A stretch of DNA of 24,000 nucleotides from Leucobacter sp. UCMA 4100 (lineage in GTDB: Bacteria > Actinomycetota > Actinomycetes > Actinomycetales > Microbacteriaceae). How positions within the stretch are numbered: the stretch's first letter is position 1; each line of letters opens with the position of its first letter. The notes under the pieces were generated by a model. The model did no database searches, was not told where the DNA came from, and was given only the letters and a program-made list of their open reading frames with translations. Positions 1,976-19,595 of the stretch are shown piece after piece. The stretch is from the NCBI RefSeq assembly GCF_027853335.1, contig NZ_JAFEUS010000002.1:1014514-1038513 (forward strand). The letters are read 5' to 3'. Made by a program: the position numbers and the translations under genes.

Positions 1976-2920
1976 TTAGCCCGCGTGCACGCCAAGTCCG
2001 TTGAGAAGCCCTGCGCGCAGGTCAGTGAAGCTGCGAGCGCCGCGGTCTCTCGGCCGTTCGCCGGCGACCGTCACGTAGCGCGCAATCGACGCGCTCGTGC
2101 GTTCGGGGCCGCCCTCAGCGCCACCGATGAACTCGGCCGCCCGCGCGGGGCCAAGCGCCCCGATGCCCGAGCTCGAACCGAGCGCGACAACCCGCGGCTG
2201 CGGGGCCTTCGCTTGTTCCCGCGAACGCTCGTCGAGCAGGTTGCGCAAGAGCAGCACGTGGTCGGCGAGGTAAATTGCTTCTTCGACGTCGTGCGTCACG
2301 AGCACAATGGTCGTTGGCTGCGCACGGTGAATGTCGAGCAGTAGGTCGTGCATCTTGAGCCGCGTGAGTGCGTCGAGCGCGCCAAACGGTTCGTCGAGCA
2401 GCAGCACCCGCGGGTTTCGGGCGAGCGCCCTCGCAAGCGAAACGCGCTGCGCCATGCCGCCCGAGATCTCGCTCGGCCGCTGCTTGGCGGCGTGCGCCAA
2501 GCCAACGAGGTCGAGCAGTTCTGCGACGCGCTTCGTCGCCTCGCGGCCGCGCACTCCCCGCGGAAGCCCCAGCGCAACATTGTGCTCAATCGTGCGCCAT
2601 GGCAGCAGTCGCGGTTCCTGAAACGCGATCGCGGTCGTCTCGTCGTGTGCCCTGATCGCTTCGCCATCGATGCGGATCGCTCCCGCCGTCGGCACATCAA
2701 GTCCGCCGATGAGCCGCAAGAGCGTCGATTTGCCGCATCCCGAGGGCCCGACGATCGCGATGATCTCGCCCGCCTCAACGTCGAGCGTCACGTCGCTCAG
2801 CACCGTGCGGGCGCCGTGCTTGCCTACGAAGGTACGCTCAACGTCGGTGATCTGCACGCGCCCGGCGGCGCTTACTGGCGCCCCGTTCGGGCTCGCTGTG
2901 GTGGGGGCTTCTTGCAACAT
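1976..2920 (-). CDS. ABC transporter ATP-binding protein (SsuB/TauB-like) with an extra C-terminal tail
   Basis: Walker A GPSGCGKST, signature ISGGMAQRVSLARAL, Walker B LLLDEPFGALD and an H-loop VTHD. About 70-80 residues lie beyond the normal end of the NBD. Confidence 0.9.
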   Translation of the reverse strand: MLQEAPTTASPNGAPVSAAGRVQITDVERTFVGKHGARTVLSDVTLDVEAGEIIAIVGPSGCGKSTLLRLIGGLDVPTAGAIRIDGEAIRAHDETTAIAFQEPRLLPWRTIEHNVALGLPRGVRGREATKRVAELLDLVGLAHAAKQRPSEISGGMAQRVSLARALARNPRVLLLDEPFGALDALTRLKMHDLLLDIHRAQPTTIVLVTHDVEEAIYLADHVLLLRNLLDERSREQAKAPQPRVVALGSSSGIGALGPARAAEFIGGAEGGPERTSASIARYVTVAGERPRDRGARSFTDLRAGLLNGLGVHAG

Positions 2921-2987
2921 ACGTATTAAGATGCCCGACCCTGGGCGGGCCGTCGAATGCAGGTGTCACACGGTGTCACCTGACGTA

Positions 2988-3011
2988 ACACGGCGAAACA
3001 TTTCGCGGTGT
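2988..3011. promoter_or_regulatory. 24-bp imperfect palindrome ACACGGCGAAAC/ATTTCGCGGTGT upstream of the sulfonate-type ABC operon
   Basis: 10 of 12 positions pair. It lies 68-91 nt upstream of the ATPase start at 2920. GGTGTCAC repeats flank it at 2962-2969 and 2972-2979, with GGTGTGAC at 3007-3014. Confidence 0.3.
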
Positions 3012-3130
3012 GACGCGAGTGGCGCGCGAGTTTAGCGGGGTTCGCGTTCGGGGCTACGCTGCTACACCCGGCCTCGCGCACACTGGGCCGATGGCAGCCT
3101 GCGTCTGGGCTTCTCCTGCGCCCCGAGGCT

Positions 3131-3218
3131 CGCCGAGTGAGTATGCGTTCGCCGACAGAGCATCGAATACACGCGTTTTTCATGCTTAGTCGGCAAAACG
3201 ATACTCAGTCGGCGAAAC
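3131..3218. repeat. Copy A of an ~84-bp element with terminal inverted repeats, at the left island border
   Basis: CGCCGAGTGAGTAT (3131-3144) is the inverted repeat of ATACTCAGTCGGCG (3201-3214) with 1 mismatch. It has an internal tandem 19-bp unit: atgcttagtcggcaaaacg / atactcagtcggcgaaacg. It shares exact 18-mer and 19-mer blocks with copy B. Confidence 0.8.
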
Positions 3219-3281
3219 GGTTTTCATTTAGCACCGTATTGTGGGTCCCAGAAGCCCTTACAACCTCGTCATAACACTGCT

Positions 3282-4070
3282 TTAAGAGCTGAGATGTGAG
3301 AGGAACTGTTTCAGATGTGGCGACTGCGGTTCTGCGATCATTCTCGTTGCTTCTCCGAGTTCTTCGATCACCCCGTCACGCATGAAAGCGATTCGATCTG
3401 CAACGTGTTGCGCAAAGTGCATCTCGTGCGTCACCACAATCATTGTCATGCCCTCCTCAGCAATCTCACGCATAACATGCAGTACTTCACCGACAAGCTC
3501 AGGGTCAAGAGCAGAGGTTGGTTCATCGAACAGCATGAGTTTTGGCTCCATAGCAAGGGCACGCGCAATGGCCACCCTTTGCTGCTGACCACCTGAGAGC
3601 TGCGAAGGATAGTGATTTGCCCGGTTTGAAAGACCCACCCGTTCGAGATACTGCAGCGCTTTTTTCTTGGCGTCAGAGCCCGAAATGCGCAGTACTTTCT
3701 TCAGGCCAATCGTGACGTTTTCAACGACTTTGAGGTGCGGGAACAGGTTGAAGTGTTGAAACACCATTCCAATGTGCCGCCTAGACGCTGCAAGCTCTTT
3801 GTCAGTCGCTTCGTACAAGCGCCCTCTGTCCTCGGTCGCGCCTACCAAACGCCCGTCGACAGAGACATATCCTTTATCGAGTGGCTGCAAGGCGTTAATC
3901 GTGCGCAGCAACGTCGACTTGCCAGAGCCTGAGGCGCCAATAAGGCACAGCACCTCGCCCTCGTGAACATCGAGGTTCACGCCGCGAAGAACGTGGTTTT
4001 CACCAAAACTGACATGAATGTTGTTCATCTCAACAAGTGGGGTTTGCCAATCGATAGTCATACCGTTCAC
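3282..4070 (-). CDS. Polar amino acid ABC transporter ATP-binding protein (GlnQ/HisP-like)
   Basis: Walker A GASGSGKST, signature LSGGQQQRVAIARALAMEP and Walker B LMLFDEPTSALDPE. The ORF opens with GTG at 4070 (a GTGA overlap with the permease stop). The ATG at 4061 has GAGGA 9 nt upstream and is the likelier start. Confidence 0.9.
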   Translation of the reverse strand: MNGMTIDWQTPLVEMNNIHVSFGENHVLRGVNLDVHEGEVLCLIGASGSGKSTLLRTINALQPLDKGYVSVDGRLVGATEDRGRLYEATDKELAASRRHIGMVFQHFNLFPHLKVVENVTIGLKKVLRISGSDAKKKALQYLERVGLSNRANHYPSQLSGGQQQRVAIARALAMEPKLMLFDEPTSALDPELVGEVLHVMREIAEEGMTMIVVTHEMHFAQHVADRIAFMRDGVIEELGEATRMIAEPQSPHLKQFLSHLSS

Positions 4071-4987
4071 TCCTCAGAAACTGACAGTTGTGCCGCGCCA
4101 GCGACGCTTCGGGACATACGTTTTTCAAGGATTCTCTGGCCAAGAGAGGCAACAAACACCAGAATCAAGTACCAGGCAGAGACAACCAAAAGCAGCGGCA
4201 CCACTTGAAAGTTCTGGCCGTAAATGCGTTGAGCCATAGTGAGCAGATCGCCGCCGCCGATCACCGCGACAAGGGAGCTTGCTTTCAAGAGCAAGATGAA
4301 GAGGTTACCGGTGGCAGGGATGATCACTCGAATTGCCTGCGGCATCACAATGTGGATCATCGCCTGCTGCCTTCTCATTCCAAGCGCTTGCGCCGCCTCA
4401 GCCTGGCCGGGAGAGACCGCGAGTAAACCGCCTCGAATAATCTCGGCCATAAATGCTGATTCGTGAAGGCCAAGACCAATGATTGAGGCGGTAAAACCGG
4501 TGATGAAAGTATTGGTGTCAATTGAGAGTCCGAACACCGGGGGAAACCCGAGAACAATATTCGGCGCAAAAAGCGCCAGGTTGTAGGTGAAGAGTAACAG
4601 CACGAGGAGCGGCAGGCCGCGAAAGAACCCGACGTAGCCCTTCGCGAAGAGCTGCAGTACAGGGTTCTCTGATCGCATCATCATGGCGACCATAAACCCG
4701 ATAATGATAGCGACCGTCACACCGATCAGCGAGAGCTGGATCGTCTTCCAGAGCCCCTGCATAATCATCGGAGAGAAAAAGAACTCCCCGAAAACATCCC
4801 ACTGGACCCTCGGGTTTGATGCAAATGCCCAGGCAGCCCAACCGACCAGACCCACAATTGCGGCGCCCACAATCCAGTGATCCGGCCGTTGGCGTTTGGT
4901 CGGTGCTTGCGCAGCATCGATGCCTGCCCAGTTAATCTGCCGAGTCACAGGGGTACGACGAGTTTCTACAGACTTTCCGTTGTCCAT
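4067..4987 (-). CDS. Polar amino acid ABC transporter permease (His/Glu/Gln/Arg/opine family)
   Basis: 306 aa with an EAA-loop region GQAEAAQALGMRRQQAMIHIVMPQA and multiple TM segments. An AAGGGAAG RBS lies before the ATG. Confidence 0.85.
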   Translation of the reverse strand: MDNGKSVETRRTPVTRQINWAGIDAAQAPTKRQRPDHWIVGAAIVGLVGWAAWAFASNPRVQWDVFGEFFFSPMIMQGLWKTIQLSLIGVTVAIIIGFMVAMMMRSENPVLQLFAKGYVGFFRGLPLLVLLLFTYNLALFAPNIVLGFPPVFGLSIDTNTFITGFTASIIGLGLHESAFMAEIIRGGLLAVSPGQAEAAQALGMRRQQAMIHIVMPQAIRVIIPATGNLFILLLKASSLVAVIGGGDLLTMAQRIYGQNFQVVPLLLVVSAWYLILVFVASLGQRILEKRMSRSVAGAAQLSVSEE

Positions 4988-5012
4988 TGTCTTCCCTTTC
5001 TCAAAGTTGCGA

Positions 5013-5041
5013 GGGAGGGGCCGTCTGCTGCGACCCCTCCC
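5013..5041 (-). terminator. Intercistronic GC hairpin GGGAGGGG-N13-CCCCTCCC just after the SBP gene
   Basis: Perfect 8-bp stem starting 7 nt downstream of the SBP stop (5048) and upstream of the permease RBS. There is no U-tract, so it is more likely an attenuator or mRNA-stability element than a full terminator. Confidence 0.45.
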
Positions 5042-5047
5042 ATGCCG

Positions 5048-6043
5048 TTATTCGAGCCCGCAGGCTCCACAGAGCTCTGGATCTTCAAGCGGTCGAGTCT
5101 CACCAAGATTGATTCCCGGTTCGAGCAGGGCAAGCTCTTCAAGGTTCCATTTCTTCAGCGCCTCCTGGTATGTCCCATCGGCGATAGCAGCTTCAAGGGC
5201 GCCTGTGAGGGCTTTGGCAAGGTCGGTTTCGTCTTTGCCTACGACAATCCCGTGATAGTCAGACGGAATGAGCGGGCTCGCGAAGCTTTCCACTTCTCTT
5301 CCCTGCGACTCCTGCCACCGTGCAGTCGCCAGGCTGGTAAAGGTTGCATTAATCTGGCCTGCTTCAAGAGCCGTTGACACATCTGCTGCAGAAGGAAACT
5401 CGGTCACGGCAAGCGGGGGCAAACCATTTGCTTCGCAGTTTTGTGAGAATACCTCTGCGTTCTGCACAAAGTTCGTGGCAGTCTGCACCCCTGCTTTCAC
5501 ACCGCACATACTTAGCGGGTTCTCAGTAACTCCCGCCGGGTTAGCTTTCATGACCATCAGGCCGTTTGCCCCGTAAGCGTTATCGACGAAGGTCACAACC
5601 TTTCGCCGTTCTTCGTTGTCAGAAATACACTCCATGGCACCTTGAAACCTGCCGCTTTGCACGCCAGGAATCAAACCGTCAAATTGCAGGGCCTCCTGCC
5701 GAATTTCGACCCCAAGGTGCGGCTCCATGACCTTGAGAATGTCATGATTGTAGCCAGCAATATCACCCGTCGAGTTATCGACGAAGTCACACGGCGGGTA
5801 GCCAGGATCAGTTCCTATGATGAGGACCCCCGACTTCTGCACCTCTTCCGGGAGAAGCTGAAATAGCTCGTTATCGCCCTGGTCGGTCTTCGGAGATTGC
5901 GCACCGTTGCCTCCCGTCGATCCGCATCCGGTCACAGCGAGCGCTACGGCGGCCGCGGCACCGACGATACTGAGCCAGCTCCGTGCTTTACGTGATGATC
6001 TTTCAAACATGATGGTTCCTTTTCTTGTCGCGTTCCTCGTCAT
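5048..6043 (-). CDS. Amino acid ABC transporter substrate-binding lipoprotein (family 3 SBP)
   Basis: Signal peptide with lipobox LAVTGCGS and a periplasmic-binding-protein-like body, adjacent to the PAAT permease and ATPase. The likely true start is the ATG at 6010 (MFERSS…), preceded by AAGGAA. The 6043 ATG has no RBS. Confidence 0.75.
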   Translation of the reverse strand: MTRNATRKGTIMFERSSRKARSWLSIVGAAAAVALAVTGCGSTGGNGAQSPKTDQGDNELFQLLPEEVQKSGVLIIGTDPGYPPCDFVDNSTGDIAGYNHDILKVMEPHLGVEIRQEALQFDGLIPGVQSGRFQGAMECISDNEERRKVVTFVDNAYGANGLMVMKANPAGVTENPLSMCGVKAGVQTATNFVQNAEVFSQNCEANGLPPLAVTEFPSAADVSTALEAGQINATFTSLATARWQESQGREVESFASPLIPSDYHGIVVGKDETDLAKALTGALEAAIADGTYQEALKKWNLEELALLEPGINLGETRPLEDPELCGACGLE

Positions 6044-6055
6044 TGAGGTGAGCGA

Positions 6056-6754
6056 CTAGATGAGTTGTTTACTGAGTTCTACGACGTGCTTACGAATGAA
6101 CACGCCATAGGTTTGTAGGTCTTGTTCAGAAAGCCGAAACGATGGGCCGATCACGCTAATCGCGGCCACAATTTCTCCAGACGAATTCATGATGGGGGCT
6201 GCAACAGCCGCGGCATCGGGCTCGACTCTGGTCGCTCGAGAACACGCAAAGCCCCGCGGCCCCACGTCGTTCTCGAGCGCGGCACCGATCGCGGTGCCCG
6301 TAGTATCGATCGTTTTACCAGCCCAGCTCGCGTGCCGAATAGCGCGCGAGCTTTCAACCTGCCGCAAGTAAACGGCTTCCCGCTTACCCGAAATAACCGC
6401 CAGGTAGGCTGTCTCGCCGGTGTACTCAGAAATTGCTTTCAGATGCTTCTCGGCCAACTCATACAGCGAGTACCGGCTCAGCGTTTGAGCCCCGAGTTGC
6501 ACGAGTACGCGGCCGGGCCGGTAGGTTGCAGAGTCACCACGAAAAAGAAATTCAGCGCGTTCAAGCGTTTTCAGATGCCGCGCAACCGTCGTAACCGGAA
6601 GCATGCTGCTGCGCGCTACATCACTGAGAGTGAGCCCCTCATCAGATTCCGCGACTATGCGCAAAATATCGAGCGCCTTATCAACACTGTTTCTCGTTTT
6701 CTGTTCGTCGTCGAGCGTGGTCATGCCCGACAGCGAATCCTTGATCTGCTCCAT
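6056..6754 (-). CDS. IclR family transcriptional regulator
   Basis: N-terminal wHTH SVDKALDILRIVAESDEGLTLSDVARSSMLPVTTVARHLKTLE followed by an IclR-type effector domain. 232 aa. Confidence 0.8.
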   Translation of the reverse strand: MEQIKDSLSGMTTLDDEQKTRNSVDKALDILRIVAESDEGLTLSDVARSSMLPVTTVARHLKTLERAEFLFRGDSATYRPGRVLVQLGAQTLSRYSLYELAEKHLKAISEYTGETAYLAVISGKREAVYLRQVESSRAIRHASWAGKTIDTTGTAIGAALENDVGPRGFACSRATRVEPDAAAVAAPIMNSSGEIVAAISVIGPSFRLSEQDLQTYGVFIRKHVVELSKQLI

Positions 6755-6805
6755 TGCAACCCCAATACACCGTTGTATGTTTGTCGTTGTTCGTGTGAAA
6801 GTGTT

Positions 6806-8233
6806 CTACTCCATAAAGTCTTCCCTGAACCCTTTCCGTTCAATGATCTTCGCAGTGTCTTCGGGGGAAAGGTACGCTTCAAACTGAAGATTTTCGAACC
6901 CAGGATGGGGCAGGTCAGCCTGCTCAGGAAACCCAGCGAGTGGTCTCGTGGCATCGATCCCTACCTTTGCAGTGAGCGTGTCTGAGCCGATGGGCGTGAA
7001 GAACTGTTTTGCGCTCGGGTCCATGCGGATGCCCTTCATGCTTTCTAACCTGACGGTGTCAACGTCGGCTTGTACCCGAACATCAGCAGCCCAGAGCACC
7101 CTTCCTGTATCGAGCACATCAATATCGTCATCGACAACGATCACGTTTTTTAAGAAGTGATCGGTTGCGAAGGCGGCAAGAATAGCTTGTTTTCCGTCGC
7201 CTTCTTTGCGTTTTTTCACCGAAATATAGGCGCTAAACGAACCACCATGAAACGGGATTCGAGCAGCAACAGCGCCAGGAACCGATCGGCGCACTCCCTC
7301 GAGCAGACGCGCCTCACGGCCAGGGTAGAGCCAAAGACACAGGTGCTCAGCGTGAGTAGGGTGAAGGTCAAGAAAGATCGGGTTGCGGCGGTGCGTTACC
7401 GCGGTAATCGTACATACCGGAGCTTTTGCTTCACCGTAGTGATACGAGAACTCTCCGAATGGCCCCTCACTCAACATGTCGTGCGGGTCGACGACACCTT
7501 CGAGTATCATCTCTGCTTCAGCCGGCACCGGTAGATCTACCGAAACTGCCGGTGTCACCCGTAACGATTCGTTCAGTAGCCCTCCAACGATCTCGTGACT
7601 ATCGACGGCGACAGTATTTTTCACCTGTGAACCCACCAGGTATGCCGGGTGATGCCCGATGATAACCGCAATGGGAACCTTCTCTTGGCGTTCTCGTGCC
7701 GCCGCAAAAATTCGGCCGAGGTCATGGTCAGGAGCAGCGTTTACCGTGATCGTATGAGAGCCCGTCACCATCATGCGGTACATGCCGGTATTGAGTTTTC
7801 CGGTTCTCGGATCACGAGCGAGCACTACCCCAGCCGTAATGTACTCACCAGCGTCTGACTTAGAATGCTGCGCAAAGGGCATAGCTTTGAGGTCAATTTC
7901 GGCCTCTTGCAACACCACTTCTTGGCTTGCAGCATTCGATACGGTTATGGGCTCAGGGAGTTGCTCGAATGGCAGCTGGATAGCCCTTTCGACAAGCTCG
8001 CCTTTGTCAATACCGAGCGAGCGGGCGAGCCGCGCGCGGGTACCAAACGTTCCCATCACCACAGGCCACGGGCTGCCAGCAACCGATTCGAACTGCACCG
8101 CTGGCGCCCCATAAGGTTCGAGGGCCTTAACAACAGACAGGATCTCCGGCCCCTTGGTTACTGGCCGACGCACCCTCAAGAGTTCGCCGCTCTCTTCGAG
8201 CGCCGAAAGGTATTCCTGAAGATTCGGGTTCAT
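6806..8233 (-). CDS. UbiD-family (prFMN-dependent) reversible decarboxylase
   Basis: 475 aa. It has a UbiD-like N-terminus (…LEESGELLRVRRPV…) and an EGPFGE motif (E-x4-E) corresponding to the catalytic Glu loop of Fdc1/UbiD enzymes. An ATGA overlap joins it to the upstream lyase gene, and ubiX is in the same operon. Confidence 0.85.
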   Translation of the reverse strand: MNPNLQEYLSALEESGELLRVRRPVTKGPEILSVVKALEPYGAPAVQFESVAGSPWPVVMGTFGTRARLARSLGIDKGELVERAIQLPFEQLPEPITVSNAASQEVVLQEAEIDLKAMPFAQHSKSDAGEYITAGVVLARDPRTGKLNTGMYRMMVTGSHTITVNAAPDHDLGRIFAAARERQEKVPIAVIIGHHPAYLVGSQVKNTVAVDSHEIVGGLLNESLRVTPAVSVDLPVPAEAEMILEGVVDPHDMLSEGPFGEFSYHYGEAKAPVCTITAVTHRRNPIFLDLHPTHAEHLCLWLYPGREARLLEGVRRSVPGAVAARIPFHGGSFSAYISVKKRKEGDGKQAILAAFATDHFLKNVIVVDDDIDVLDTGRVLWAADVRVQADVDTVRLESMKGIRMDPSAKQFFTPIGSDTLTAKVGIDATRPLAGFPEQADLPHPGFENLQFEAYLSPEDTAKIIERKGFREDFME

Positions 8234-9768
8234 GATGCATTGCCTACGAGTGGTACCGCTCCATGAGGAAGGTACGATCCGCTCAAAATATCGGCCGCCA
8301 CAGCCTCCATATCGTTCGCAAGGGCCCGATCTTGATCGAGGTACTGTGAACGGGCACGAACAAGCTCAAACACCGGCTTTAACGCTGGGGCGCTCGGGCC
8401 ACCATCACGCATTTCTGACCCCTGGGCTGCTGCCAAAAGCTCGATTGCTACAACGTAGGCCGCGTTTTGGGCCATCGGCTGCAGTCGAACACCGCCGTGC
8501 GTCGCCATACTGACGTGATCTTCTTGCCCAGCTGAGGTCGGAATGCTGTCAACGCTGGTGGGAAAGGCCTTGGTCTTATTTTCAGCGACGAGCGCTGCTG
8601 AGGTGACCTGCGCCATCAGAAACCCTGAGTTCAGTCCGGCGCCTTCAACCAAGAACGGCGGTAGCCCAGACATCGAGGTATCAACGATCATTGCCGTGCG
8701 CCGCTCAGTGATCGAACCGATTTCGCACAGCGCCATCGCGATCATATCTGAGGCAAAGGCAACCGGCTCACCGTGAAAGTTGCCTCCAGAAAGCACGACT
8801 TCGTCGTCTGGAAAGACGAGAGGATTATCTGAAACTGCGTTGGCCTCACGCTCCAAAACTCGCGCTGCTTGTTCTAGCAGGTCGAGCGAAGCGCCAAAAA
8901 CCTGGGGCATGCAACGCAAGCTGTACGGATCTTGTAGCCTGCGGCCTTCGAATTCGTGAGCAAGAATCTCGCTTTCAGCGACGAGGTTTCGAAGCGAAGC
9001 TGCAACGGTTATCTGGCCAATCTGACCACGAATCGCTTGGATGCGAGCGTCAAGTGCTTCCTGCCGCCCCGCTGTTGCTTCGAGGGTCAGCGCCCCCGCT
9101 GTAATCGCGGCGTTCAACACCTTTTCTGCGGCAAAAAGCCCTTGAAGCGCAAGCGCTGTCGAAGCTTGAACACCGTTGATGAGGGCAACACCCTCTTTCG
9201 GGCCCAGCTCAGCCGGATCAAGGCCAACACTGCGCAGACCCTCAACGGCGTTATAGATTTTGCGCCCAATACGCACCTGCCCGTGCCCTGTCATGACGCC
9301 TGCCATGTGCGAGAGAGGTGCCAGGTCGCCAGAGGCCCCGACAGAACCCTGACTTGGAATCACCGGAAGCACATCGTGGTTGATCATGTCGAGCAGCAGT
9401 TGGACAACTTCAAGTCTTAGACCCGAATGTCCCTGGCACAATGACAGCAGCTTTACCACCATCATTCCCCGCACCGTTGCCTCGCCAAACGATGGGCCGA
9501 CACCTACCATATGAGACTCGACAACTCTGCGCTGGAGTTCGAGTAGCTCGTCTTTGCTAATACGCCGATCAGCGAGTTTGCCAAACCCTGTGTTGACACC
9601 GTAGATCACGTCGCCGCGAGCAACCAGATCGGTGATGACCTTGTGAGCTCGTTCAATACGTTCTCTGGTTTCGTTCGAGAGTTCAACCGTGACCGGGCCT
9701 TCAAAAGGCAAGCGCAAGTCATCGAGTGTTGCTTTTGCCGTGCTAATAAGAATGTGTTGAAACATCAT
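8230..9768 (-). CDS. hutH: MIO-dependent ammonia-lyase, histidine ammonia-lyase type
   Basis: Contains the GSVGASGDLAPLSH (Ala-Ser-Gly MIO triad). YGVNTGFG, KEGVALINGVQAST, QDPYSLRC, GGNFHGEPVA and PTSAGQEDHVSMA all align without gaps to Pseudomonas putida HAL as recalled from memory. The selectivity position reads S-H (ESHMVG) as in HAL. I moved the start from the track's 9807 to the ATG at 9768, which has a GAAAGGA RBS and avoids an overlap with ubiX. Confidence 0.85.
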   Translation of the reverse strand: MMFQHILISTAKATLDDLRLPFEGPVTVELSNETRERIERAHKVITDLVARGDVIYGVNTGFGKLADRRISKDELLELQRRVVESHMVGVGPSFGEATVRGMMVVKLLSLCQGHSGLRLEVVQLLLDMINHDVLPVIPSQGSVGASGDLAPLSHMAGVMTGHGQVRIGRKIYNAVEGLRSVGLDPAELGPKEGVALINGVQASTALALQGLFAAEKVLNAAITAGALTLEATAGRQEALDARIQAIRGQIGQITVAASLRNLVAESEILAHEFEGRRLQDPYSLRCMPQVFGASLDLLEQAARVLEREANAVSDNPLVFPDDEVVLSGGNFHGEPVAFASDMIAMALCEIGSITERRTAMIVDTSMSGLPPFLVEGAGLNSGFLMAQVTSAALVAENKTKAFPTSVDSIPTSAGQEDHVSMATHGGVRLQPMAQNAAYVVAIELLAAAQGSEMRDGGPSAPALKPVFELVRARSQYLDQDRALANDMEAVAADILSGSYLPHGAVPLVGNAS

Positions 9769-9794
9769 TGTCCTTTCTGAAGTGTGAAGATCAT

Positions 9795-10355
9795 TTATTC
9801 GGTCCACCGTGTCACCAGGGTTGTCTCGATACCGAACTGGTCGAGCATTCTGCCCACCCCTTCGTCGATGACCTCGTCGATGCTGGTCGGCCTGTTATAG
9901 AACGCTGGCACCGGGAGGCACACCGTTGCGCCTGCGAGTGTCACGGTCTCCATATTTCTGATGTGAATCAGGTTGAGCGGTGACTCGCGCAGCAGGAGCA
10001 CAAGCGGCCTCCGTTCTTTCAACGTCACATCGGCGGCCCTCGCGAGGAGTGTTGTTCCCCCACCGTTCGCGATGTCTGCGATTGATCGCGCCGAGCACGG
10101 GGCCACGACCATTCCCCGGGTCTGAAACGACCCTGATGCGATACTCGCAGCCATGTCTCTCGGGGAGTGGACGTAACTCGCGAGGTTTTTCACCTCTTTC
10201 GCGGTCATATCAAGCTCATATGAAAGCGTCAGCTCGGCCATTTTGGAAATCACGAGGTGCGACTCAATCTCAAGCTCACGAAGGACCTCAAGCAGCCTCA
10301 CCCCGTACTGAACGCCGCTCGCACCACTGATACCAACAACAATGCGGTTCGTCAT
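9795..10355 (-). CDS. ubiX: UbiX flavin prenyltransferase (prFMN synthase)
   Basis: 186 aa. RIVVGISGASG…, SGSFQTRGMVVAPCS, LKERRPLVLLLRE and PVPAFYNRP are collinear with E. coli UbiX. Confidence 0.9.
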   Translation of the reverse strand: MTNRIVVGISGASGVQYGVRLLEVLRELEIESHLVISKMAELTLSYELDMTAKEVKNLASYVHSPRDMAASIASGSFQTRGMVVAPCSARSIADIANGGGTTLLARAADVTLKERRPLVLLLRESPLNLIHIRNMETVTLAGATVCLPVPAFYNRPTSIDEVIDEGVGRMLDQFGIETTLVTRWTE

Positions 10356-11878
10356 GACGCACGCACCTTGATATTCACCGATTTCAGTTCAACGAAGCTC
10401 GCGAGTTCGTCAGCCGACTCTTCTCGGCCGACACCGCTCTTGCCCATACCGCCGAACGGTGAGCCAGGATAGTGCCGATTAGCATCGTTCACCCAGATAT
10501 ATCCGGCCTGTATCGATTCAGAGACTCGCAGCGCCCGATCAAGATCATGGGTCCATACAGCCGCTGAAAGACCATACTCCGTCTCGTTGGCAAGCCGCAC
10601 AGCCTCGGCCTCATCTGCAAACGGCATCACAATGGCAACGGGTCCAAACACCTCTTGAGAGAACAAACTCATCTGCTCGGTCACACCGGTTAGCAAAGTG
10701 GGTTTGAGGTAGTAGCCCCCGGCATGTTGTTCTTGCGAGCCCTCTCCCGTCGCTTTATCTTCGGAACCTGACCCACCGGCCACCAGCGTTGCACCCTCGT
10801 GAACGGCCTGGTCAATCATGCCGCGCACCGTTCGAAGGTGCTCGAGTGAGACGACTGGCCCCATTTCAGTGTTCTCTTCATACGCCGGCCCGACACGAAG
10901 CCCCTCCATTTTGCGGCTTAGCGCAGTGACGACCTCAGCGAAGATCGTTTGTTGAACGAGAATTTTGGCGGTCGACTGGCAGCTTTGGCCTGCGCTCACC
11001 GTGAAGCTCAGCCCGGCAAAGGCTGCCTCAGTTGCCTCAGCGACATCGCAATCATCAAACATCACAAACGGGTTCTTGCCACCGAGTTCCGCGCTAAAGT
11101 GCTTCACAGTGCCGCTCGTCGAAAGCCGTTCTTGAATCGCAAGCGCGGTTCTATCACTGCCGGTAAAAGCGATACGCTTCACTTCAGGATGGGTCACCAA
11201 TGCATCTCCTGCTTCAGCGCCTCCACCAAGAATATTGACCAGCCCATCAGGCAGCGTTCCTTTCAACACTGCACCGAGCGCGAGTGTCGAAAGCGGCGTC
11301 TGTGCAGAGGTTTTAATCACGAGCCCATTACCCGCCATGAGCGGAAAAATGGCCCCTGCAAGAGCGAAAAGCAACGGGTGATTGTACGCAATAATTTTTC
11401 CCACAACACCATATGGCTCTGCTGAGATGAGCGAAAAACCGTCACGGTGAGGCTTCGTAAAACGTCCGTGTTGTGCAGCAGCAGTGCCTGGCCACTCAGC
11501 GAGGTATTTCAAGGCGAGCCCGACATCCCGACGAGTTGAAGCAAGCGGGTTACCGCTATCAACAGATTCAAGAAAAGCAAAATCTTCAGCTAGCGCCGAG
11601 AATTTCTCGCGTACTTGCGAAAACACGAGTGCTCGTTCCGAAGGAGTACGGGCCCGCCACTCGCGCTGAGCAACCAGAGCCGCATCAACCGCAACGCCGA
11701 TCTCTTCTCGGTTGCTCTCAGGAGCCGAGGTGAATTCAAGACCCGTCGAAGGATTAAACACCGGTTTATTCTCAACGGGTTCAACCCAGCCGCCGTTCAC
11801 GAAGTTCTTTGGCACCCCGTCAGCCCAAAAAGTACGCAGCACCAGATCAATATCTGTCTGCCTCTGTTGTTCGCTCAT
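10352..11878 (-). CDS. NAD(P)+-dependent aldehyde dehydrogenase
   Basis: 508 aa with the catalytic Glu motif ELGGKNP, the Cys motif SAGQSCQS, and FTGS and PFGG(M)GKSG motifs. ATGA overlaps occur at both ends. Confidence 0.85.
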   Translation of the reverse strand: MSEQQRQTDIDLVLRTFWADGVPKNFVNGGWVEPVENKPVFNPSTGLEFTSAPESNREEIGVAVDAALVAQREWRARTPSERALVFSQVREKFSALAEDFAFLESVDSGNPLASTRRDVGLALKYLAEWPGTAAAQHGRFTKPHRDGFSLISAEPYGVVGKIIAYNHPLLFALAGAIFPLMAGNGLVIKTSAQTPLSTLALGAVLKGTLPDGLVNILGGGAEAGDALVTHPEVKRIAFTGSDRTALAIQERLSTSGTVKHFSAELGGKNPFVMFDDCDVAEATEAAFAGLSFTVSAGQSCQSTAKILVQQTIFAEVVTALSRKMEGLRVGPAYEENTEMGPVVSLEHLRTVRGMIDQAVHEGATLVAGGSGSEDKATGEGSQEQHAGGYYLKPTLLTGVTEQMSLFSQEVFGPVAIVMPFADEAEAVRLANETEYGLSAAVWTHDLDRALRVSESIQAGYIWVNDANRHYPGSPFGGMGKSGVGREESADELASFVELKSVNIKVRAS

Positions 11879-13182
11879 CCGCGCATACCTCCATCGTTCA
11901 CCGTGCGTAAGCGTGAGAAAACTGAAGTCTGAATACTCTGGCCAGCTTCTTTAAGATGCACCTCGAGTGGGTGCTCGTCGGTGTTCACCCCGTTCATCTG
12001 AGCAACGACCAGGTCAACCAGAAAATCACCAGCGACCGGAGCCGTTTTAAATTGGTTTCCGCTCGTACCGATCGCTATGAAGACACCTGGCTGATCAGTC
12101 TTATCAAAAATCGGTAGCCAGTCATCAGTGACGTCATAGAGACCGGCAACGCCCTTAGGAATCGCTGTAAGCGCAAGCGAAGGAATGCGTCTTGCAGCTC
12201 GCCCGGCCTGGCGATACCAACCATCGCGAGTTGCATCGCTCCGATATTTATTTGAGTCAGAAATGAGCTCTTCACCGTCAACCGGGTCTCCCGATGAACC
12301 GACCATGAACCCATCTTTGCCCTCTGGCCGAAAGTTAATACCAAGGTCACCGTCAACAATATGGGCCGGGTTTTTGATTTCTTCAGAGGCCGTTACATGG
12401 TGTAGCTCTTGGCGAATAATGCGCTGCCCAACAGTAAAGTCATTACCCACGCCCAGAAGCCGGTTAACTTCTATCGAGGCGGGTCCAGCCGCATTAACGA
12501 CGTTCGCCGACTCGAGCACATTGCCATCCTGTAAGGTCAACTGCCAGTTTCCACCTGCACCGCGAGAAGCGCCCACAACGCGTTGCCCCATAACAAAGTG
12601 TGCGCCAAGCCTGCGAGCTTTTTGCGCAAGATTCTGTGCTGCGAGAGCGGGGTCAGCAACGTACCCTGAGCTCGCGGTATGCAACGCCCGTTCGATCAGG
12701 CCGTCGGGTTCTTTCCAAAACTCTTCGGAGTCGGGGTGAGCCGGCGGCCCGAACTTCTCAAGGTCTGCCCATGGCAGTTCTTCTTGCAACGTATCGTGGC
12801 CAAGGAACGAAAAGCCAATGCCATTTGCTTCGAGCACCGCAGCATACTTATCGAGGGTCTCGTTGTGGTCTTCAAGAATGAACGTGCCACATTGGACAAA
12901 CTCAGCAGCAGCTTCACTCGCAGGAACCCCAACAAAATCGCGCCAGTTCTTCCACGCAAATACTGACTCATGCGACATAAGACTGCTTGCAAAGTCACCG
13001 GCATGAACACGAACGATTCCAGCCGAAGCGCTCGTCGACCCAAACCCCGGCGTGGGGTTCGCGTCGATGACGGCAACGCTCAAGCCACGTTGAGCCGCGG
13101 CCACCGCGATTGACGTGCCGACGATTCCGGCCCCGATAATCGCGAGGTCAACACTATGACCTCTGAGATGAGCAGTTTGCAT
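11875..13182 (-). CDS. FAD-dependent oxidoreductase, DAO (D-amino-acid/sarcosine/glycine oxidase) family
   Basis: Dinucleotide fold DLAIIGAGIVGTSIAVAAAQRG…VAVID followed by GSTSASAGIVR. The start was trimmed from 13320 to the ATG at 13182, which has GGAGGGG 4 nt upstream. The 46 upstream codons cross the promoter region and look non-coding. Confidence 0.75.
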   Translation of the reverse strand: MQTAHLRGHSVDLAIIGAGIVGTSIAVAAAQRGLSVAVIDANPTPGFGSTSASAGIVRVHAGDFASSLMSHESVFAWKNWRDFVGVPASEAAAEFVQCGTFILEDHNETLDKYAAVLEANGIGFSFLGHDTLQEELPWADLEKFGPPAHPDSEEFWKEPDGLIERALHTASSGYVADPALAAQNLAQKARRLGAHFVMGQRVVGASRGAGGNWQLTLQDGNVLESANVVNAAGPASIEVNRLLGVGNDFTVGQRIIRQELHHVTASEEIKNPAHIVDGDLGINFRPEGKDGFMVGSSGDPVDGEELISDSNKYRSDATRDGWYRQAGRAARRIPSLALTAIPKGVAGLYDVTDDWLPIFDKTDQPGVFIAIGTSGNQFKTAPVAGDFLVDLVVAQMNGVNTDEHPLEVHLKEAGQSIQTSVFSRLRTVNDGGMRG

Positions 13183-13216
13183 TTCCCCTCCATCGCCTTT
13201 GACTGAATACAGGAAA

Positions 13217-13279
13217 ATTAACAAACTCTTCCCACCATTTGGCAATAGTTTCCGCCTAGCGGGAAACAAAATTATTTCC
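13217..13279 (-). promoter_or_regulatory. Putative island-operon promoter (TTGCCA-17-GTTAAT on the minus strand) with an adjacent GTTTCC/GGAAAC palindromic operator candidate
   Basis: The -35 is at 13245-13240 and the -10 at 13222-13217. The overlapping palindromes GTTTCC-N8-GGAAAC (13248-13267) and GGAAAC-N7-TTTCC (13262-13279) lie immediately upstream of the -35. Confidence 0.3.
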
Positions 13280-13331
13280 TGGGTAGCTACCAAAGCTAGG
13301 AAGGCCCGGCGGCTCCTCAAGAACTAGGGTT

Positions 13332-13414
13332 CGCTCAGTGAGTATGCGTTCGCCGGCTGAACATGAAAACGCGTCGATTCGATACTCAGTCGGCGAAACA
13401 ATGCTCAGTCGGCG
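13332..13414. repeat. Copy B of the ~84-bp TIR element, at the right island border
   Basis: GTGAGTATGCGTTCGCCG (13338-13355) and GATACTCAGTCGGCGAAAC (13381-13399) are identical to blocks in copy A. A second 19-bp unit, atgctcagtcggcg, lies at 13401-13414. The outer 6-7 nt of the left arm are degraded at the island junction. Confidence 0.8.
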
Positions 13415-13452
13415 CACCCACGCCCGCTCGGCGGCGGAGGATGGTCGGCGAG

Positions 13453-15030
13453 CTACGCCTCCGCCGCGCGCCAGTGCCGCTGGAGCGCACGCCCGCCGGC
13501 GAGGCACGAGAAGTAGCAGAGCGTGGCTGCCGCGCAGAAGATGAGCAGCGGCACAATGCGCGGGGCGTCACGCAAGATGGTTACGCCCCACAGGGAGAAG
13601 CTCACGAGCGTGATGAGGGCGGCGGCGACGGGCGGCCAATCGCTGAGGGGCAGCATCGTCGGGTAAGTGACTTTTGAGACGAAGCGCAGGTGGAAGCTGC
13701 TGGCGATCCACCCAGCAATGTTCGCGAGGGCAATGGTCGCGGCAATTGCCGGAACCACGAGGTGCGAGGGCAGGGCGAGCGAGGCGATGAGCGTTCCGGT
13801 GACGGTGACCGAGGCGACCGTGAGTTGGGCGTAGAACGGCGCCTTTGCGTTGTTGCGGGCGAGGCTCACGCGGTTGAGCAGGTAGGTCTGGCTGATGGCG
13901 AGCACCCCGACGGCGAGTATCTGGGCGACGGTGCCGACGTGCGGGGTGCCCCAGGCGATGAGCGAGAGGGTTGGCGCCGTCAGCACGATCACGACGACGG
14001 CGAAGAGCATGAGGCTGTTGATCTTGCGGCTCACCGAGGCCGCCCCGTCGATGAATCGTGGATCGTTCGGCGTCGAAGCGTTCAGGGCGATGTCGGGAAA
14101 CGCGCTGGTCACGAGCGCGACCGTGAACACCCCGTGCGGCACGAGCACGATGAGCGTTGCCGTCGCGAGCGTGTTGAAGCTCGCACCGTCGGCGCCCGCG
14201 AGGTTGATGGCCTCGCCCGCGGCGTTTGCCACGTTAGCGATCGTGATGGTCGCGACCTGGCCGAAGATCGCCCCGGCGAAGGTCCACCCCGCGAGCTCTG
14301 AGACGAGCCGCATGCCTGAGACCGAGAAACGCAATCGCAAGCGAATGCCCGAGCGCGCGGTCGCGATGATGAGTATCGCGGTTTGCACGGCGGTCGCGAG
14401 CGTCGCTGACCCGCACAGCACGGCGACCATCGTGGGGCTCCAGCTCTCGACTGGCCCGAGGCCTGAGGGCAGCAGCCAGGCAAAGACCAGCAGCCCAGCG
14501 ATGCCGACGAGGTTCGAGCAGGCGGGCGCCCACGCCGCAGCCTGAAAGCGTTTGTTGGCATTGAGCACCTGCGAGAGCACCGCAAACACGATGAGAAAGA
14601 ACAGCTGTGGAATGCACCAGTACATCATCTGTACCGTGAGCCCCTTCCACGCGGGGCTCCACTGGTAGGCGTAGAGGTTCACGAGCAGCGGCGCACCGAT
14701 CATGAGCAGCGCCGTAACCGCGAGGCCGCCCCACAGCGCGATCGTGAAGAGCTGGTTGACGAACCGCTGCCCCTGCTCGCCCTGCTGCATCGCCCTCACG
14801 AGGCTCGGCAAGAGCACCGCGCCGAGCACCCCGCTCGAGATGAGCGTGAACACGTACTGCGGCACCGAGCTCGCGACCTCGAACGCTTGGCCGCCAACGT
14901 GCGCCGCCGTGCCGCCAATGACCGCGACGAGCACGACGACCTTCACGAAGCCGAGCAGCCGCGAGACCAGCACCGCGAGCGCGATGCCGAAGGCGGGACC
15001 CCGCAATCGGGGCGCAAACTGCGTGAGCAA
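13453..15030 (-). CDS. murJ: MurJ/MviN-like lipid II flippase (MOP superfamily)
   Basis: 525 aa and polytopic. The N-terminus …VSRLLGFVKVVVLVAVIGG…AFEVASSVPQYVFTLISSGVLGAVLLPSLV matches the MurJ signature region. Confidence 0.6.
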   Translation of the reverse strand: MLTQFAPRLRGPAFGIALAVLVSRLLGFVKVVVLVAVIGGTAAHVGGQAFEVASSVPQYVFTLISSGVLGAVLLPSLVRAMQQGEQGQRFVNQLFTIALWGGLAVTALLMIGAPLLVNLYAYQWSPAWKGLTVQMMYWCIPQLFFLIVFAVLSQVLNANKRFQAAAWAPACSNLVGIAGLLVFAWLLPSGLGPVESWSPTMVAVLCGSATLATAVQTAILIIATARSGIRLRLRFSVSGMRLVSELAGWTFAGAIFGQVATITIANVANAAGEAINLAGADGASFNTLATATLIVLVPHGVFTVALVTSAFPDIALNASTPNDPRFIDGAASVSRKINSLMLFAVVVIVLTAPTLSLIAWGTPHVGTVAQILAVGVLAISQTYLLNRVSLARNNAKAPFYAQLTVASVTVTGTLIASLALPSHLVVPAIAATIALANIAGWIASSFHLRFVSKVTYPTMLPLSDWPPVAAALITLVSFSLWGVTILRDAPRIVPLLIFCAAATLCYFSCLAGGRALQRHWRAAEA

Positions 15031-15132
15031 ACGTGACCTTATTCTCTCGGCTGATTGCTTTGAGTGTAGCCCTCACCACTGACACATTCGCGGCGGATCA
15101 CCCCGCGCACGCCCCTGCCAACGCACCCATGT

Positions 15133-15216
15133 CGCCGAGTGAGCATCGCTTCGCCGAAAGCACATGGAATCGACGCGATTTGGATGCTCACTCGACGAAA
15201 CGATGCTCACTCGGCG
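15133..15216. repeat. Copy C of the ~84-bp TIR element (core-genome intergenic)
   Basis: Perfect 16-bp terminal inverted repeat CGCCGAGTGAGCATCG (15133-15148) / CGATGCTCACTCGGCG (15201-15216). The internal tandem units gatgctcactcgacgaaac / gatgctcactcggcg are collinear with A and B. Confidence 0.8.
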
Positions 15217-15249
15217 TCGCGCAAGACCGCGGAGCCGATCCGCACCCTG

Positions 15250-15696
15250 TTAATCGAACTCGGGGGTCTCGACGCTGCACTCGACCTCTTCGCCCGGGAG
15301 GCCGTAAGCCGAGGCAATCTCATTTTCGCCGTCGAGCAAAATGCGGCAGTGGGCCACGAGCCCCGCTTCGGGCACGGCGCGCACGGTCGCCGTCTTGGTC
15401 GTGTCGATGATCGCATCGGTACTCCAGCCGGGCGCCACGGGCTGCACTCGCACGCTCTCGGCCTTTCCCATCTTGGGTGCCTTGCCGCGCTTCTCCTGGT
15501 TTGCGTACGAGACCTCGGCCGAGCTCGGCTCGTTCTGCCCCTCGACGCTGATTTCGTAGGTGACGCTCCAGGCGTCTTGCTTGAGCGGCGACAGGGCCGC
15601 CTCGGCGAGCGAGCAGCTTGCGAGAACGGTAACGCCGATGGCCGCACCAACGATTGCGAGCGCGACAGAACCGGTTTTGTGTGACGTTGCTTTCAT
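15250..15696 (-). CDS. MmpS-like small lipoprotein or membrane-anchored protein
   Basis: Likely start at MKATSHK… (ATG 15696), with a signal/TM segment and LASC lipobox. The C-terminal pattern …CRILLDGENEIA…VECS resembles the MmpS family. The 48 upstream codons in the track ORF look non-coding. Confidence 0.45.
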   Translation of the reverse strand: MKATSHKTGSVALAIVGAAIGVTVLASCSLAEAALSPLKQDAWSVTYEISVEGQNEPSSAEVSYANQEKRGKAPKMGKAESVRVQPVAPGWSTDAIIDTTKTATVRAVPEAGLVAHCRILLDGENEIASAYGLPGEEVECSVETPEFD

Positions 15697-15938
15697 ACTT
15701 CTACTCTGGCCAGAGAGGCCGCCACCCACATCGGGCCAGGGTATGAAGGTCACGCGCAGGCGTTGCACCTGGGTGCCATATGGCGTCGCGCCGTGGGCCG
15801 CGCAGGTCCAGGCGTCACACCGTGAGCCACACCGGGTCACGCGCCGAGCGGGCAGGCTGGCAGCTTGGCGATGCAGCCCAGCACAGTGGAAGGGTTGGAA
15901 CCCTGGTCAACGCGCGCAGTTCTCGCTACGGTGGCCCC

Positions 15939-16271
15939 ATGGCCATCGTCACGATCGTCTTAAGCCTCATCGCGCTCGCATCGGTGCAGCTGCCAGCGGC
16001 GGGCCTTGTTGGCCCAAACCGACTGCTCGGCATCAGGGTGAGTAGATCGCTCGCGAGCCCCGAGGCCTGGCGACGCGTGCACCGGCGCGCGCTTCCATTT
16101 TCGTGGGCTGGCACGATCGCCTGCTGGGTGCTCGTGACGCTCTCGTACACGAGCGCCCTTCCGGCAGCACTCACGCTTGCCCTCGCAGCGGCGGTTCTTG
16201 GGCTGGTGCTCGGCGCGTGGGCTGGCGTCGCCCGTGAGCGGCGCCTCGAGGCTGGCCGGCTCAGAGCGTAG
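15939..16271 (+). CDS. SdpI/YhfL-family small membrane protein
   Basis: Starts at MAIVTIVLSL… The motif GPNRLLGIRVSRSLASPEAWRRVHR matches the SdpI family signature, and there are 3 TM segments. The track ORF start at 15780 is probably an over-extension. Confidence 0.5.
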   Translation: MAIVTIVLSLIALASVQLPAAGLVGPNRLLGIRVSRSLASPEAWRRVHRRALPFSWAGTIACWVLVTLSYTSALPAALTLALAAAVLGLVLGAWAGVARERRLEAGRLRA

Positions 16272-18828: not shown

Positions 18829-18836
18829 GTTCTCTG

Positions 18837-18909
18837 AGCCGCCTGCGAGAATCGAACTCGCGACCTTTTCATTACGAGTGAAACGCTCTACCGACTGAGC
18901 TAAGGCGGC
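18837..18909 (-). tRNA. tRNA-Thr (anticodon CGT)
   Basis: The reverse complement GCCGCCTTAGCTCAGTCGGTAGAGCGTTTCACTCGTAATGAAAAGGTCGCGAGTTCGATTCTCGCAGGCGGCT was folded by hand into a cloverleaf. It has a 7-bp acceptor stem, a GCTC/GAGC D stem, anticodon loop CTCGTAA and a GTTCGATTC T-loop. CCA is not encoded. Confidence 0.9.
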
Positions 18910-19370: not shown

Positions 19371-19454
19371 CTGGCGGGGCCGTGGCGGGTGTCGGTGTGC
19401 GGCGGCGTGCGCCGGTTTGGCCTCGGTTGGCTGGTGCGCGCTGATTTCTCGTCT

Positions 19455-19506
19455 ACTTGACGAAAAGCAGGGTGTTTTCGCTTCAGCACCCTGCTTTTCG
19501 TCAAGT
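19455..19506. repeat. Perfect 20-bp-stem palindromic hairpin element, copy 1
   Basis: ACTTGACGAAAAGCAGGGTG - 12 nt - CACCCTGCTTTTCGTCAAGT. Confidence 0.85.
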
Positions 19507-19537
19507 GGATTGCGCGGGGGCGTGCGCCGTTCGCCTG

Positions 19538-19588
19538 CTTGACAGAAAGCAGGGTTATCGAGCCCAAACACCCTGCTTTTCGTCAAGT
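19538..19588. repeat. Palindromic hairpin element, copy 2 (imperfect)
   Basis: CTTGACAGAAAGCAGGGT - 14 nt - ACCCTGCTTTTCGTCAAGT has the same arms as copy 1 with a 2-nt difference in the left arm. Confidence 0.8.
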
Positions 19589-19595
19589 AAACGTG

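Follow-up and report, generated by a model that had tools for sequence, protein, structure and literature searches.

The window analysed here is a 24-kb stretch of the chromosome of Leucobacter sp. UCMA 4100. Within this 67% GC chromosome, a block of about 10.1 kb (3215-13331) had a GC content of 0.551, compared with 0.669 to its left and 0.665 to its right, and GC3 values were 0.53-0.70 for the genes of the block versus 0.80-0.89 in the flanks. The block contained nine genes (Table 1), all with metabolic, transport or regulatory functions. No integrase, recombinase or transposase was found within the island or in the 24-kb window, which agrees with its initial annotation as free of mobility genes, and comparison of the island DNA with plasmids yielded only weak hutH-level matches. 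The island is a horizontally acquired, compositionally foreign operon. The NMT1-type ABC transporter operon to its left is kept in other Leucobacter and in Microbacterium, and marks the core side of this junction. The MurJ-family paralogue to its right was 49% identical to the best homologue outside the clade (from Cryobacterium) and 35% identical to that of another Leucobacter.

Table 1. Genes and repeat copies at the locus, in window coordinates.
Feature	Coordinates	Strand	Evidence or remark
Backbone ABC ATPase	1976..2920	-	first gene of the NMT1-type ABC transporter operon (58-2920)
Copy A	3128..3218, core 3131-3214	.	RNA fold -49 kcal/mol, z -7.2; nhmmer E 1.6e-26
Central 44 nt of copy A (inner units and spacer)	3151..3194	.	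inverted versus copy B and versus copy A of relatives
Nine-gene island cluster	3219..13328	-	composition, gene content
ATPase	4061-3282	-	island gene, last of the cluster
Permease	4987-4067	-	island gene
Amino-acid ABC substrate-binding protein	6010-5048	-	island gene
IclR regulator	6754-6056	-	island gene
UbiD	8233-6806	-	island gene
HAL/PAL-family lyase	9768-8230	-	island gene
UbiX	10355-9795	-	island gene
Aldehyde dehydrogenase	11878-10352	-	island gene
DAO-type FAD oxidoreductase	13182-11875	-	island gene
Copy B	13329..13418, core 13332-13414	.	fold -45 kcal/mol, z -6.2; nhmmer E 1e-24
MurJ-family flippase paralogue	13453..15030	-	between C and B; GC3 0.89, native-like
Copy C	15130..15220, core 15133-15216	.	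fold -59 kcal/mol on minus strand; profile search

Three copies of a palindromic element, designated A, B and C, were identified by profile search in three adjacent intergenic gaps and nowhere else in the DNA searched. The element, about 85-90 bp long, folds into a near-perfect hairpin whose arms each consist of two tandem 19-nt units (consensus GATRCTCASTCGGCGAAAC), with a 16-nt AT-rich spacer containing ACGCGT between the arms; its ends read GTTTCGCCGA ... TCGGCGARCC. The 19-nt unit occurred nine times in the window, while 0.03 occurrences were expected by chance. Arm complementarity over about 35 nt and a total length of 84-91 nt correspond to the terminal inverted repeats and the 50-500 bp size of MITEs, and the stable folding of all copies (-45 to -59 kcal/mol, z -6 to -7), together with their intergenic location, corresponds to REP-like extragenic palindromes. 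All three copies lie 30-67 nt 3' of the stop codon of a co-directional gene: A is 63-67 nt past the stop of the last island gene and 211 nt ahead of the start of the backbone ABC ATPase, B is 35-38 nt past the MurJ stop and 150 nt ahead of the start of the DAO gene, and C is 30-34 nt past the stop of a gene for a 148-aa hypothetical protein and 103 nt ahead of the MurJ start. The GC content of the element (0.53-0.57) is closer to that of the island than to that of most backbone intergenic DNA (0.60-0.79). An intrinsic terminator scan of positions 2800-15400 revealed no site at A, B or C, whose tails are GC-rich and contain no U-tract. Consensus folding of six copies, which are too few sequences for this purpose, found covariation in 1 of 25 pairs. 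A check of the flanks of A, B and C, and of the composite that A and B form with the island, revealed no direct repeat that could represent a target-site duplication. An Rfam scan of the window detected tRNA-Thr only and no family matching the element, and a literature search on Leucobacter palindromic repeats returned nothing relevant.

Copies A and B bracket the low-GC island as precisely as was originally noted, since the GC content switches within about 100 nt of each copy. According to our own arithmetic, with about 23 intergenic gaps in the window, the chance that three randomly placed copies hit both island borders is about 1%; the direct-repeat bracketing of the island is real and not a chance effect. 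The similarity of the two copies in the window is more complex. A and B were 80.2% identical in direct and 77.6% in inverted orientation, A and C 78.8%, and B and C 76.7%. The proposal that A and B are closer to each other than to C is therefore marginal in the window (80% versus 79% for A/C) and holds well in the sister strains, where A and B are 96-98% identical and about 75% identical to C. Copy C represents a divergent subfamily (73-79% identity to A and B) and is the best palindrome among the three. The same orientation of A and B, also proposed earlier, applies to the outer arms, where a G.G mismatch asymmetry defines it, but is marginal overall, and in A the central 44 nt run in the opposite sense to those of copy B and of the A copies in both L. 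chinensis and the SRR25724558 strain. Flipping this centre increased the identity to S_A from 86% to 91%, and a base-by-base count made by eye on the aligned sequences gave 4 mismatches in the flipped and about 12 in the direct orientation.

Both exact blocks reported to be common to A and B were recovered. The first one, GTGAGTATGCGTTCGCCG, occurs exactly twice, at 3137 and 13338, as claimed. The second, GATACTCAGTCGGCGAAAC, is also present exactly twice, at 3200 and 13381, but is not collinear with the first: the block offsets are 10181 and 10201, and it pairs the outer right unit of A with the inner right unit of B, being out of register by one 19-nt unit. In register, A and B of the window share no exact match longer than 18 nt, a length that would serve homologous recombination poorly in this strain. 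The degradation of the island-proximal outer arm of B was evident from comparison of CGCTCAGTGAGTAT (13332) with CGCCGAGTGAGTAT (3131).

The relatives of the window strain provided a clearer picture of the pair. In the SRR25724558 assembly, the MurJ-side contig L001 and the island-end contig L094 both end on one 30-mer within the element, and the ABC-side contig L008 resumes past the core; this arrangement implies that A and B are exactly alike over a core of at least 51 nt in this strain. L001 and L008, overlapping by 9 nt, could be joined into a single perfect "hybrid" element, but this was rejected as an empty site because the contig with the island ATPase (L094), from the same sample, stops on the same 30-mer as L001, indicating that the assembly broke at each of the two copies. 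The right halves of A and B compared across the sister strains were 96.7-97.8% identical, and those of C were 73-76% identical. In sequence terms, the sister strains thus support a duplicated A/B pair far better than the window does. In L. chinensis, copy B has lost three of its four units, and copy A carries three B-type bases in common with copy B (compared by eye), which suggests that A and B exchange sequence with each other. The identity between the window and L. chinensis was 94% for the island and 93%-94% for the flanks; since the island has diverged as much as its surroundings, it is ancestral to the L. chinensis clade.

The survey of clade DNA for the element covered the 24-kb window and about 55 kb from L. 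chinensis. Beyond the A-to-C segment, the profile search found no further copy in the remaining 43 kb of L. chinensis or elsewhere in the window, so that, as far as surveyed, the element is not so abundant that it would flank an island by chance, a concern raised in the initial annotation. Outside the clade, no copies were found in about 75 loci (1.5 Mb) of other Microbacteriaceae, in viral contigs (pattern scan) or in plasmids (BLAST), while a pattern scan of metagenomes gave one chance match only, located within a coding sequence. Thus, the element has been seen so far in the Leucobacter chinensis group only. The island was present in every clade assembly found, with no island-free genome among them, and other Leucobacter species showed no synteny at the A-B site. 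A genome-collection scan anchored on the NMT1 binding protein gave 80 loci but was rejected as a source of empty sites: the nearest non-clade relative (78-82% protein identity) had neither MurJ nor the island upstream.

The island or a homologue of it was found in two other contexts. Locus L089 (from SRR29457782) carries a 94%-identical island elsewhere, with no element within 180 nt upstream at its DAO end, and L097, from a 68% GC actinobacterium, contains a homologous nine-gene cluster (UbiD 73% identical at the protein level), also without the element. These two cases indicate that the element belongs to the recipient site and not to the island cargo. They also make it very improbable that A and B are termini of a mobile unit that brought the operon in and can excise it, whether as a composite transposon flanked by MITEs or through att sites recognised by a recombinase from elsewhere. 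Such a unit would fit the direct repeats located exactly at the island ends and the GC content of the element, but the composite and the single copies have no target-site duplication, the window encodes no integrase or transposase, the family is absent from the viral, plasmid and metagenome collections searched, and the island is fixed in all clade assemblies found.

We tentatively favor, at somewhat less than even confidence, the explanation that A and B are one element that was duplicated when the operon was inserted and has decayed since. The pair probably marks how the operon was inserted; the coupling of the duplication to the insertion, and its enzymology, we infer. A single ancestral element would have resided between the MurJ gene and the ABC transporter operon, and insertion of the foreign 55% GC operon at this resident element would have duplicated it, leaving direct copies on both sides. 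In one possible route, a circular or linear donor with a similar element would recombine with the resident copy in a Campbell-type, attL/attR-like event. In another, the palindrome would be cut at its two bases by staggered, structure-specific breakage, and fill-in would then generate a target duplication equal to the palindrome. The insertion would predate the diversification of the L. chinensis clade, and later decay may have proceeded as in other long palindromes, through inversion of the A centre in the window strain, loss of three quarters of the B units in L. chinensis, scattered substitutions and occasional exchange between A and B. Being a direct pair, A and B could delete the island, but neither a deletion nor an excision junction was seen, and the island is retained in every clade assembly found. 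A further reading, which we consider quite unlikely, is that the palindrome acts as a structure-specific capture site: cruciform extrusion and nicks at both hairpin bases (or terminal-resolution-like unfolding) would be followed by repair that duplicates the palindrome around the ligated DNA. The C-MurJ-B-operon-A array, as a series of foreign modules with the element between them, could then have been built without a dedicated recombinase, and the inverted centre of A would record flip/flop by the same chemistry.

Several observations argue against duplication at insertion. No island-free genome was found among the clade assemblies, so the single ancestral copy is hypothetical, and a second low-GC island of L. 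chinensis, described below, lacks flanking copies of the element. A and B are only 80% identical in the window itself, no recombinase or transposase is located nearby, and the near-identity of A and B in the sister strains could result from gene conversion rather than from recent duplication. Moreover, the third copy occupies the next gap and all copies follow stop codons at 30-67 nt, so a general "operon-end" element fits equally well. The main rival explanation, a real possibility although one we would not rely on, is that A, B and C are independent REP/REPIN- or MITE-like copies settled or retained past stop codons, possibly as terminator, RNA-stabilising or insulating hairpins; the island ends would be operon ends and nothing more, and the likeness of A and B would reflect one subfamily or gene conversion. 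The position and hairpin stability (z -6 to -7) common to all three copies, the existence of copy C, which shows the family to be independent of the island, and the missing target-site duplications and recombinase are all consistent with such copies, and the derived bases common to A and B of L. chinensis fit conversion. REP-type elements are known to occur at operon ends and to serve as insertion-sequence targets (PMC1525189). On the contrary, a dispersed family would not give three copies in three consecutive gaps, and no other copy was found in the 43 kb of flanking L. chinensis DNA or elsewhere searched. A terminator role is not supported by the terminator scan or by the tails of the copies, the little covariation detected gives scant support to a selected RNA structure, and free decay, as in copy B of L. 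chinensis, argues against strong functional constraint.

The duplication might also have preceded the insertion: two or more copies may already have been adjacent in the gap separating MurJ from the ABC operon, forming a BIME-like cluster or a hotspot of fragile palindromes, and the foreign operon would have entered between them by illegitimate recombination at a break. Palindromes are recognised break sites, and the region is a plasticity hotspot, with three different arrangements upstream of MurJ in the window, L. chinensis and the SRR25724558 strain, tRNA-Thr-associated insertions nearby, and a second low-GC island about 2 kb away in L. chinensis (L006, 1621-9310). We nevertheless regard this order of events as unlikely, since no tandem pairs of the element were seen anywhere, no empty site was found among the clade assemblies and the second L. 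chinensis island is not flanked by the element. The latter case shows that insertion in this region need not involve the element.

If duplication at insertion is true, the locus would provide a clean case from nature in which a recombinase-free metabolic island entered an actinobacterial genome at a palindromic intergenic repeat, and reversible loss of the island would be predicted, which can be tested by PCR. If the element is just an ordinary repeat of operon ends, the finding is routine, and what it adds is a repeat family not described before, at which short-read assemblies of the clade break. The locus shows how fast a palindrome changes between strains 4-6% apart, with inversion of the centre, deletion of three quarters of a copy and sequence exchange.

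Comparison with known systems revealed partial likeness to several of them. The array resembles integron attC cassette arrays, in which co-directional modules are each followed by an imperfect palindrome, and attC sites of 60-140 bp are of similar size. The core sites of attC have the consensus RYYYAAC and GTTRRRY; by inspection, the element ends do not fit it. Unlike an integron, the window encodes no integrase, and the "cassette" would be a nine-gene operon with its own regulator. To our knowledge, integrons are essentially unknown in Actinobacteria. MITE-flanked composite units, such as integron mobilization units and TIME-COMP, similarly consist of two small non-autonomous inverted-repeat elements around transposase-free cargo, but the target-site duplications typical of MITEs are missing here, and at L089 the same island stands without the element. 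As in the attL/attR pairs of genomic islands and integrative elements, two direct copies lie exactly at the borders of foreign DNA, and the pair was near-identical in the ancestor. Unlike such pairs, the island has no integrase or excisionase at either end, neither a tRNA gene nor a conserved gene serves as the target, a complete palindrome of about 85 bp takes the place of a short core, and neither an empty site nor an excision product was observed.

REP, REPIN and BIME elements of Proteobacteria, as well as ERIC, Correia/CREE and SMAG, differ in that REP families comprise tens to hundreds of dispersed copies, while the element has three known copies in adjacent gaps and none in 43 kb nearby. 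In addition, its arms consist of two tandem 19-nt units, its host is an actinobacterium, and no RAYT (IS200/IS605-like Y1) transposase was found in the approximately 80 kb of clade DNA examined. REP-type palindromes are described as a hotspot for insertion and recombination (PMC1525189). The element resembles this group in being a short, modular, imperfect palindrome located just past genes, in forming a stable hairpin without target-site duplications and in being lineage-specific.

The repeat element, about 85–90 nt long, is a near-perfect hairpin. Two tandem 19-nt units (consensus GATRCTCASTCGGCGAAAC) make up each arm, and a 16-nt spacer with ACGCGT at its centre separates the arms. The 19-nt unit occurs 9 times in the window versus 0.03 expected by chance, and the predicted hairpins fold with energies of -45 to -59 kcal/mol (z scores of -6 to -7). 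No Rfam family matched the element. A profile built from six copies and run on all fetched loci (about 1.7 Mb) had matches at the clade's A, B, and C sites alone; no element was detected in 43 kb of Leucobacter chinensis DNA outside the A-to-C segment or in the 1.5 Mb of other Microbacteriaceae searched (about 75 loci). Viral contigs gave no match in a two-unit pattern scan, and plasmids gave none in a BLAST search with the element. The lone metagenome match of the pattern scan was dismissed as chance, since it lay inside a coding sequence. Zero copies in 43 kb correspond to a rough upper bound of about one copy per 14 kb, and even at this density the probability that both borders are occupied by chance is, by our own arithmetic, below about 1%. 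The bracketing of the island by element copies, proposed in the initial annotation, is real and non-random, and is better supported by the sister strains than by the window.

Features of the locus, with positions in the window
Feature	Coordinates	Location	Strand
NMT1-type ABC operon, conserved	58–2920	left flank	
Copy A	3131–3214		
DAO-type FAD oxidoreductase		within island	minus
Aldehyde dehydrogenase		within island	minus
UbiX flavin prenyltransferase		within island	minus
HAL/PAL-family ammonia-lyase		within island	minus
UbiD decarboxylase		within island	minus
IclR regulator		within island	minus
Amino-acid ABC transporter: binding protein, permease, ATPase (three genes)		within island	minus
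Copy B	13332–13414		
MurJ paralogue	13453–15030	right flank	
Copy C	15133–15216		
148-aa gene, SdpI, CoaBC, TANGO2, S4-domain protein		right flank, beyond MurJ	
tRNA-Thr	18836–18909	right flank, beyond MurJ	minus
58-nt hairpin repeat pair	19449–19593		
13-nt tandem repeat	19596–19659		

The two exact blocks reported as shared by A and B were both found in place, with no other occurrence in the window. The second block is an exact match but out of register, since its offset from A to B is 10181 versus 10201 for the first; A contributes its outer right unit to this match and B its inner right unit. Identity between A and B is 80.2% when they are aligned directly and 77.6% when one is inverted, while A/C and B/C identities are 78.8% and 76.7%; within the window, the claims that A and B share an orientation and are closer to each other than either is to C therefore hold only marginally. 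The orientation is ambiguous because the central 44 nt of A (3151–3194) run in the opposite orientation to B and to A of relatives, while the outer arms are direct: their consistent asymmetry, GAGTGAG on one side and CTCAGTC on the other, places A and B in direct orientation. With the centre of A flipped, the copy was 91% rather than 86% identical to its SRR25724558 counterpart, and we counted 4 mismatches in the flipped segment versus about 12 in the unflipped one.

In SRR25724558, a read-set sample holding a sister strain, the MurJ contig (L001) stops in the left half of the element and the ABC-operon contig (L008) starts in the right half, and their ends overlap into one perfect element. 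This arrangement resembled an allele lacking the island and retaining one hybrid copy, a reading rejected because the sample also contains the island ATPase gene (contig L094). L094 and L001 end on exactly the same 30-mer, indicating that A and B of this strain share an exact core of at least 51 nt (CTGAGCATCG... to ...CATGCTC) that was left unresolved in the assembly. In sister strains, A and B agree at 96.7%–97.8% of positions in their right halves, with C 73%–76% identical to them; ancestral A and B were therefore nearly identical direct repeats, and the 80% identity in the window is due to secondary decay. Copy A of L. chinensis is full length (L007, 9713–9804), B is cut down to a single island-proximal unit (L006, 11711–11729), and C is shortened. 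Three bases in the outer right unit of L. chinensis A match L. chinensis B and not A of other strains, which suggests that the two copies have exchanged sequence with each other.

The best-supported reading, which we favor tentatively, traces A and B to a single resident element duplicated as the operon inserted at it. The duplication would proceed by Campbell-type recombination or by a staggered break at the palindrome bases followed by fill-in, and typical palindrome decay of the copies would ensue. The main rival, also quite possible, is that the copies are ordinary operon-end palindromes of a REP/MITE-like family, with the likeness of A and B due to a subfamily or gene conversion. A, B, and C are each placed 30–67 nt past the stop codon of a minus-strand gene and 100–210 nt ahead of the next gene. 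No target-site duplications, U-tract terminator signature or, on inspection, attC core sites were found at the element, and its copies showed no useful amount of covariation, which limits the options. The att-like, target-duplication, and excision interpretations are unproven.

The block at 3215–13331 is foreign in composition, with a GC content of 0.551, against 0.669 on the left side of the element pair and 0.665 on its right side, and a third-position GC of 0.53–0.70 in its genes versus 0.80–0.89 in flanking genes. Neither its nine genes, all on the minus strand, nor the rest of the 24-kb window include mobility genes. The element is probably not part of the island, judging from the island's other sequence contexts: no element occurs in the 180 nt upstream of the DAO gene in a 94%-identical island elsewhere (L089, SRR29457782), and the same nine-gene cluster in an unrelated actinobacterium (L097) adjoins ETF genes without the element. 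An element-bounded mobile unit would explain the occupied borders, but given these contexts and gene contents it is very improbable. The element does not flank a second low-GC island of L. chinensis (7.7 kb, about 55% GC, strain-specific; L006, 1621–9310), only about 2 kb away from C, so it is not strictly needed for insertion in this plastic region. This second island sits between SdpI and a 160-aa gene upstream of C and encodes a TRAP transporter, two aminotransferases, an IclR regulator, and an M19 dipeptidase.

The L097 cluster comes from a genome of 68% GC and has the same gene set in the same order (2142–11448, corresponding to 3282–13182, minus strand, of the window); its UbiD protein is 73% identical to that of the island. 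The set looks like a self-contained, possibly uncharacterised amino-acid catabolic pathway, in which an amino acid would be deaminated to an acrylate, followed by prFMN-dependent decarboxylation. UbiX/lyase gene calls differ by strain (L090, 3034–5160; L004, 9672–10031; L096, 4490–4951), with a 708-aa UbiX-lyase fusion in one assembly and UbiX truncated to 119 or 153 aa in others; frameshifts, assembly errors, or genuine differences may account for this.

Flanking proteins share 90%-identity clusters with L. chinensis, and in a GTDB scan the NMT1 binding protein was 99% identical to that of L. chinensis NC76-1, versus only 78%–82% for the next Leucobacter species. The locus was recovered from three MAGs and read-set assemblies ERR12057356 and ERR12057301 (99.98%–100% DNA identity to the window), from L. 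chinensis, and from several more distant read-set assemblies (94%–96% nucleotide identity). The island was present in every recovered clade assembly, and its identity between the window and L. chinensis (94.0%) is like that of the flanks (92.8%–93.8%); it thus dates back at least to the common ancestor of the clade. In other Leucobacter and Microbacterium species, no MurJ, island, or right-flank gene of the window was found upstream of the ABC operon, which itself is conserved there, and the loci compared from these species and the clade included no informative empty site. Insertion between neighbouring copies that already stood there is a further, unlikely reading of the bracketed island.

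The surroundings are variable as well. The MurJ between B and C is a divergent paralogue (best match outside the clade 49%, Cryobacterium; only 35% identical to another Leucobacter), is not beside the ABC operon in other Leucobacter species, and may itself be an acquired module. The stretch from CoaBC to the 148-aa gene varies among close strains (L001, 909–3889, versus window 15822–17501): SRR25724558 has extra genes there for a TetR regulator, a 383-aa protein, and an AadA_C/nucleotidyltransferase-like protein, which the window lacks. L. chinensis synteny breaks exactly at the 3' end of tRNA-Thr (18833; L098, 14626), and in MAG contig L004 (1–949) homology ends inside this gene (18875), beside a phage-integrase gene; the site, some 3.6 kb from C, is a classical tRNA integration hotspot. 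A different 58-nt hairpin repeat pair, with the two repeats 78% alike and the arms of each 96% complementary, is situated between convergent genes and is followed by 4.9 copies of the 13-nt tandem repeat CCCGGCCAACGCA. At this locus L. chinensis differs by an indel of about 58 nt; a contig from a MAG (L002) stops nearby.

The family of the A/B/C element is undescribed, and its kind is already known, namely lineage-specific palindromic intergenic repeats, which here form direct repeats at the borders of an island.
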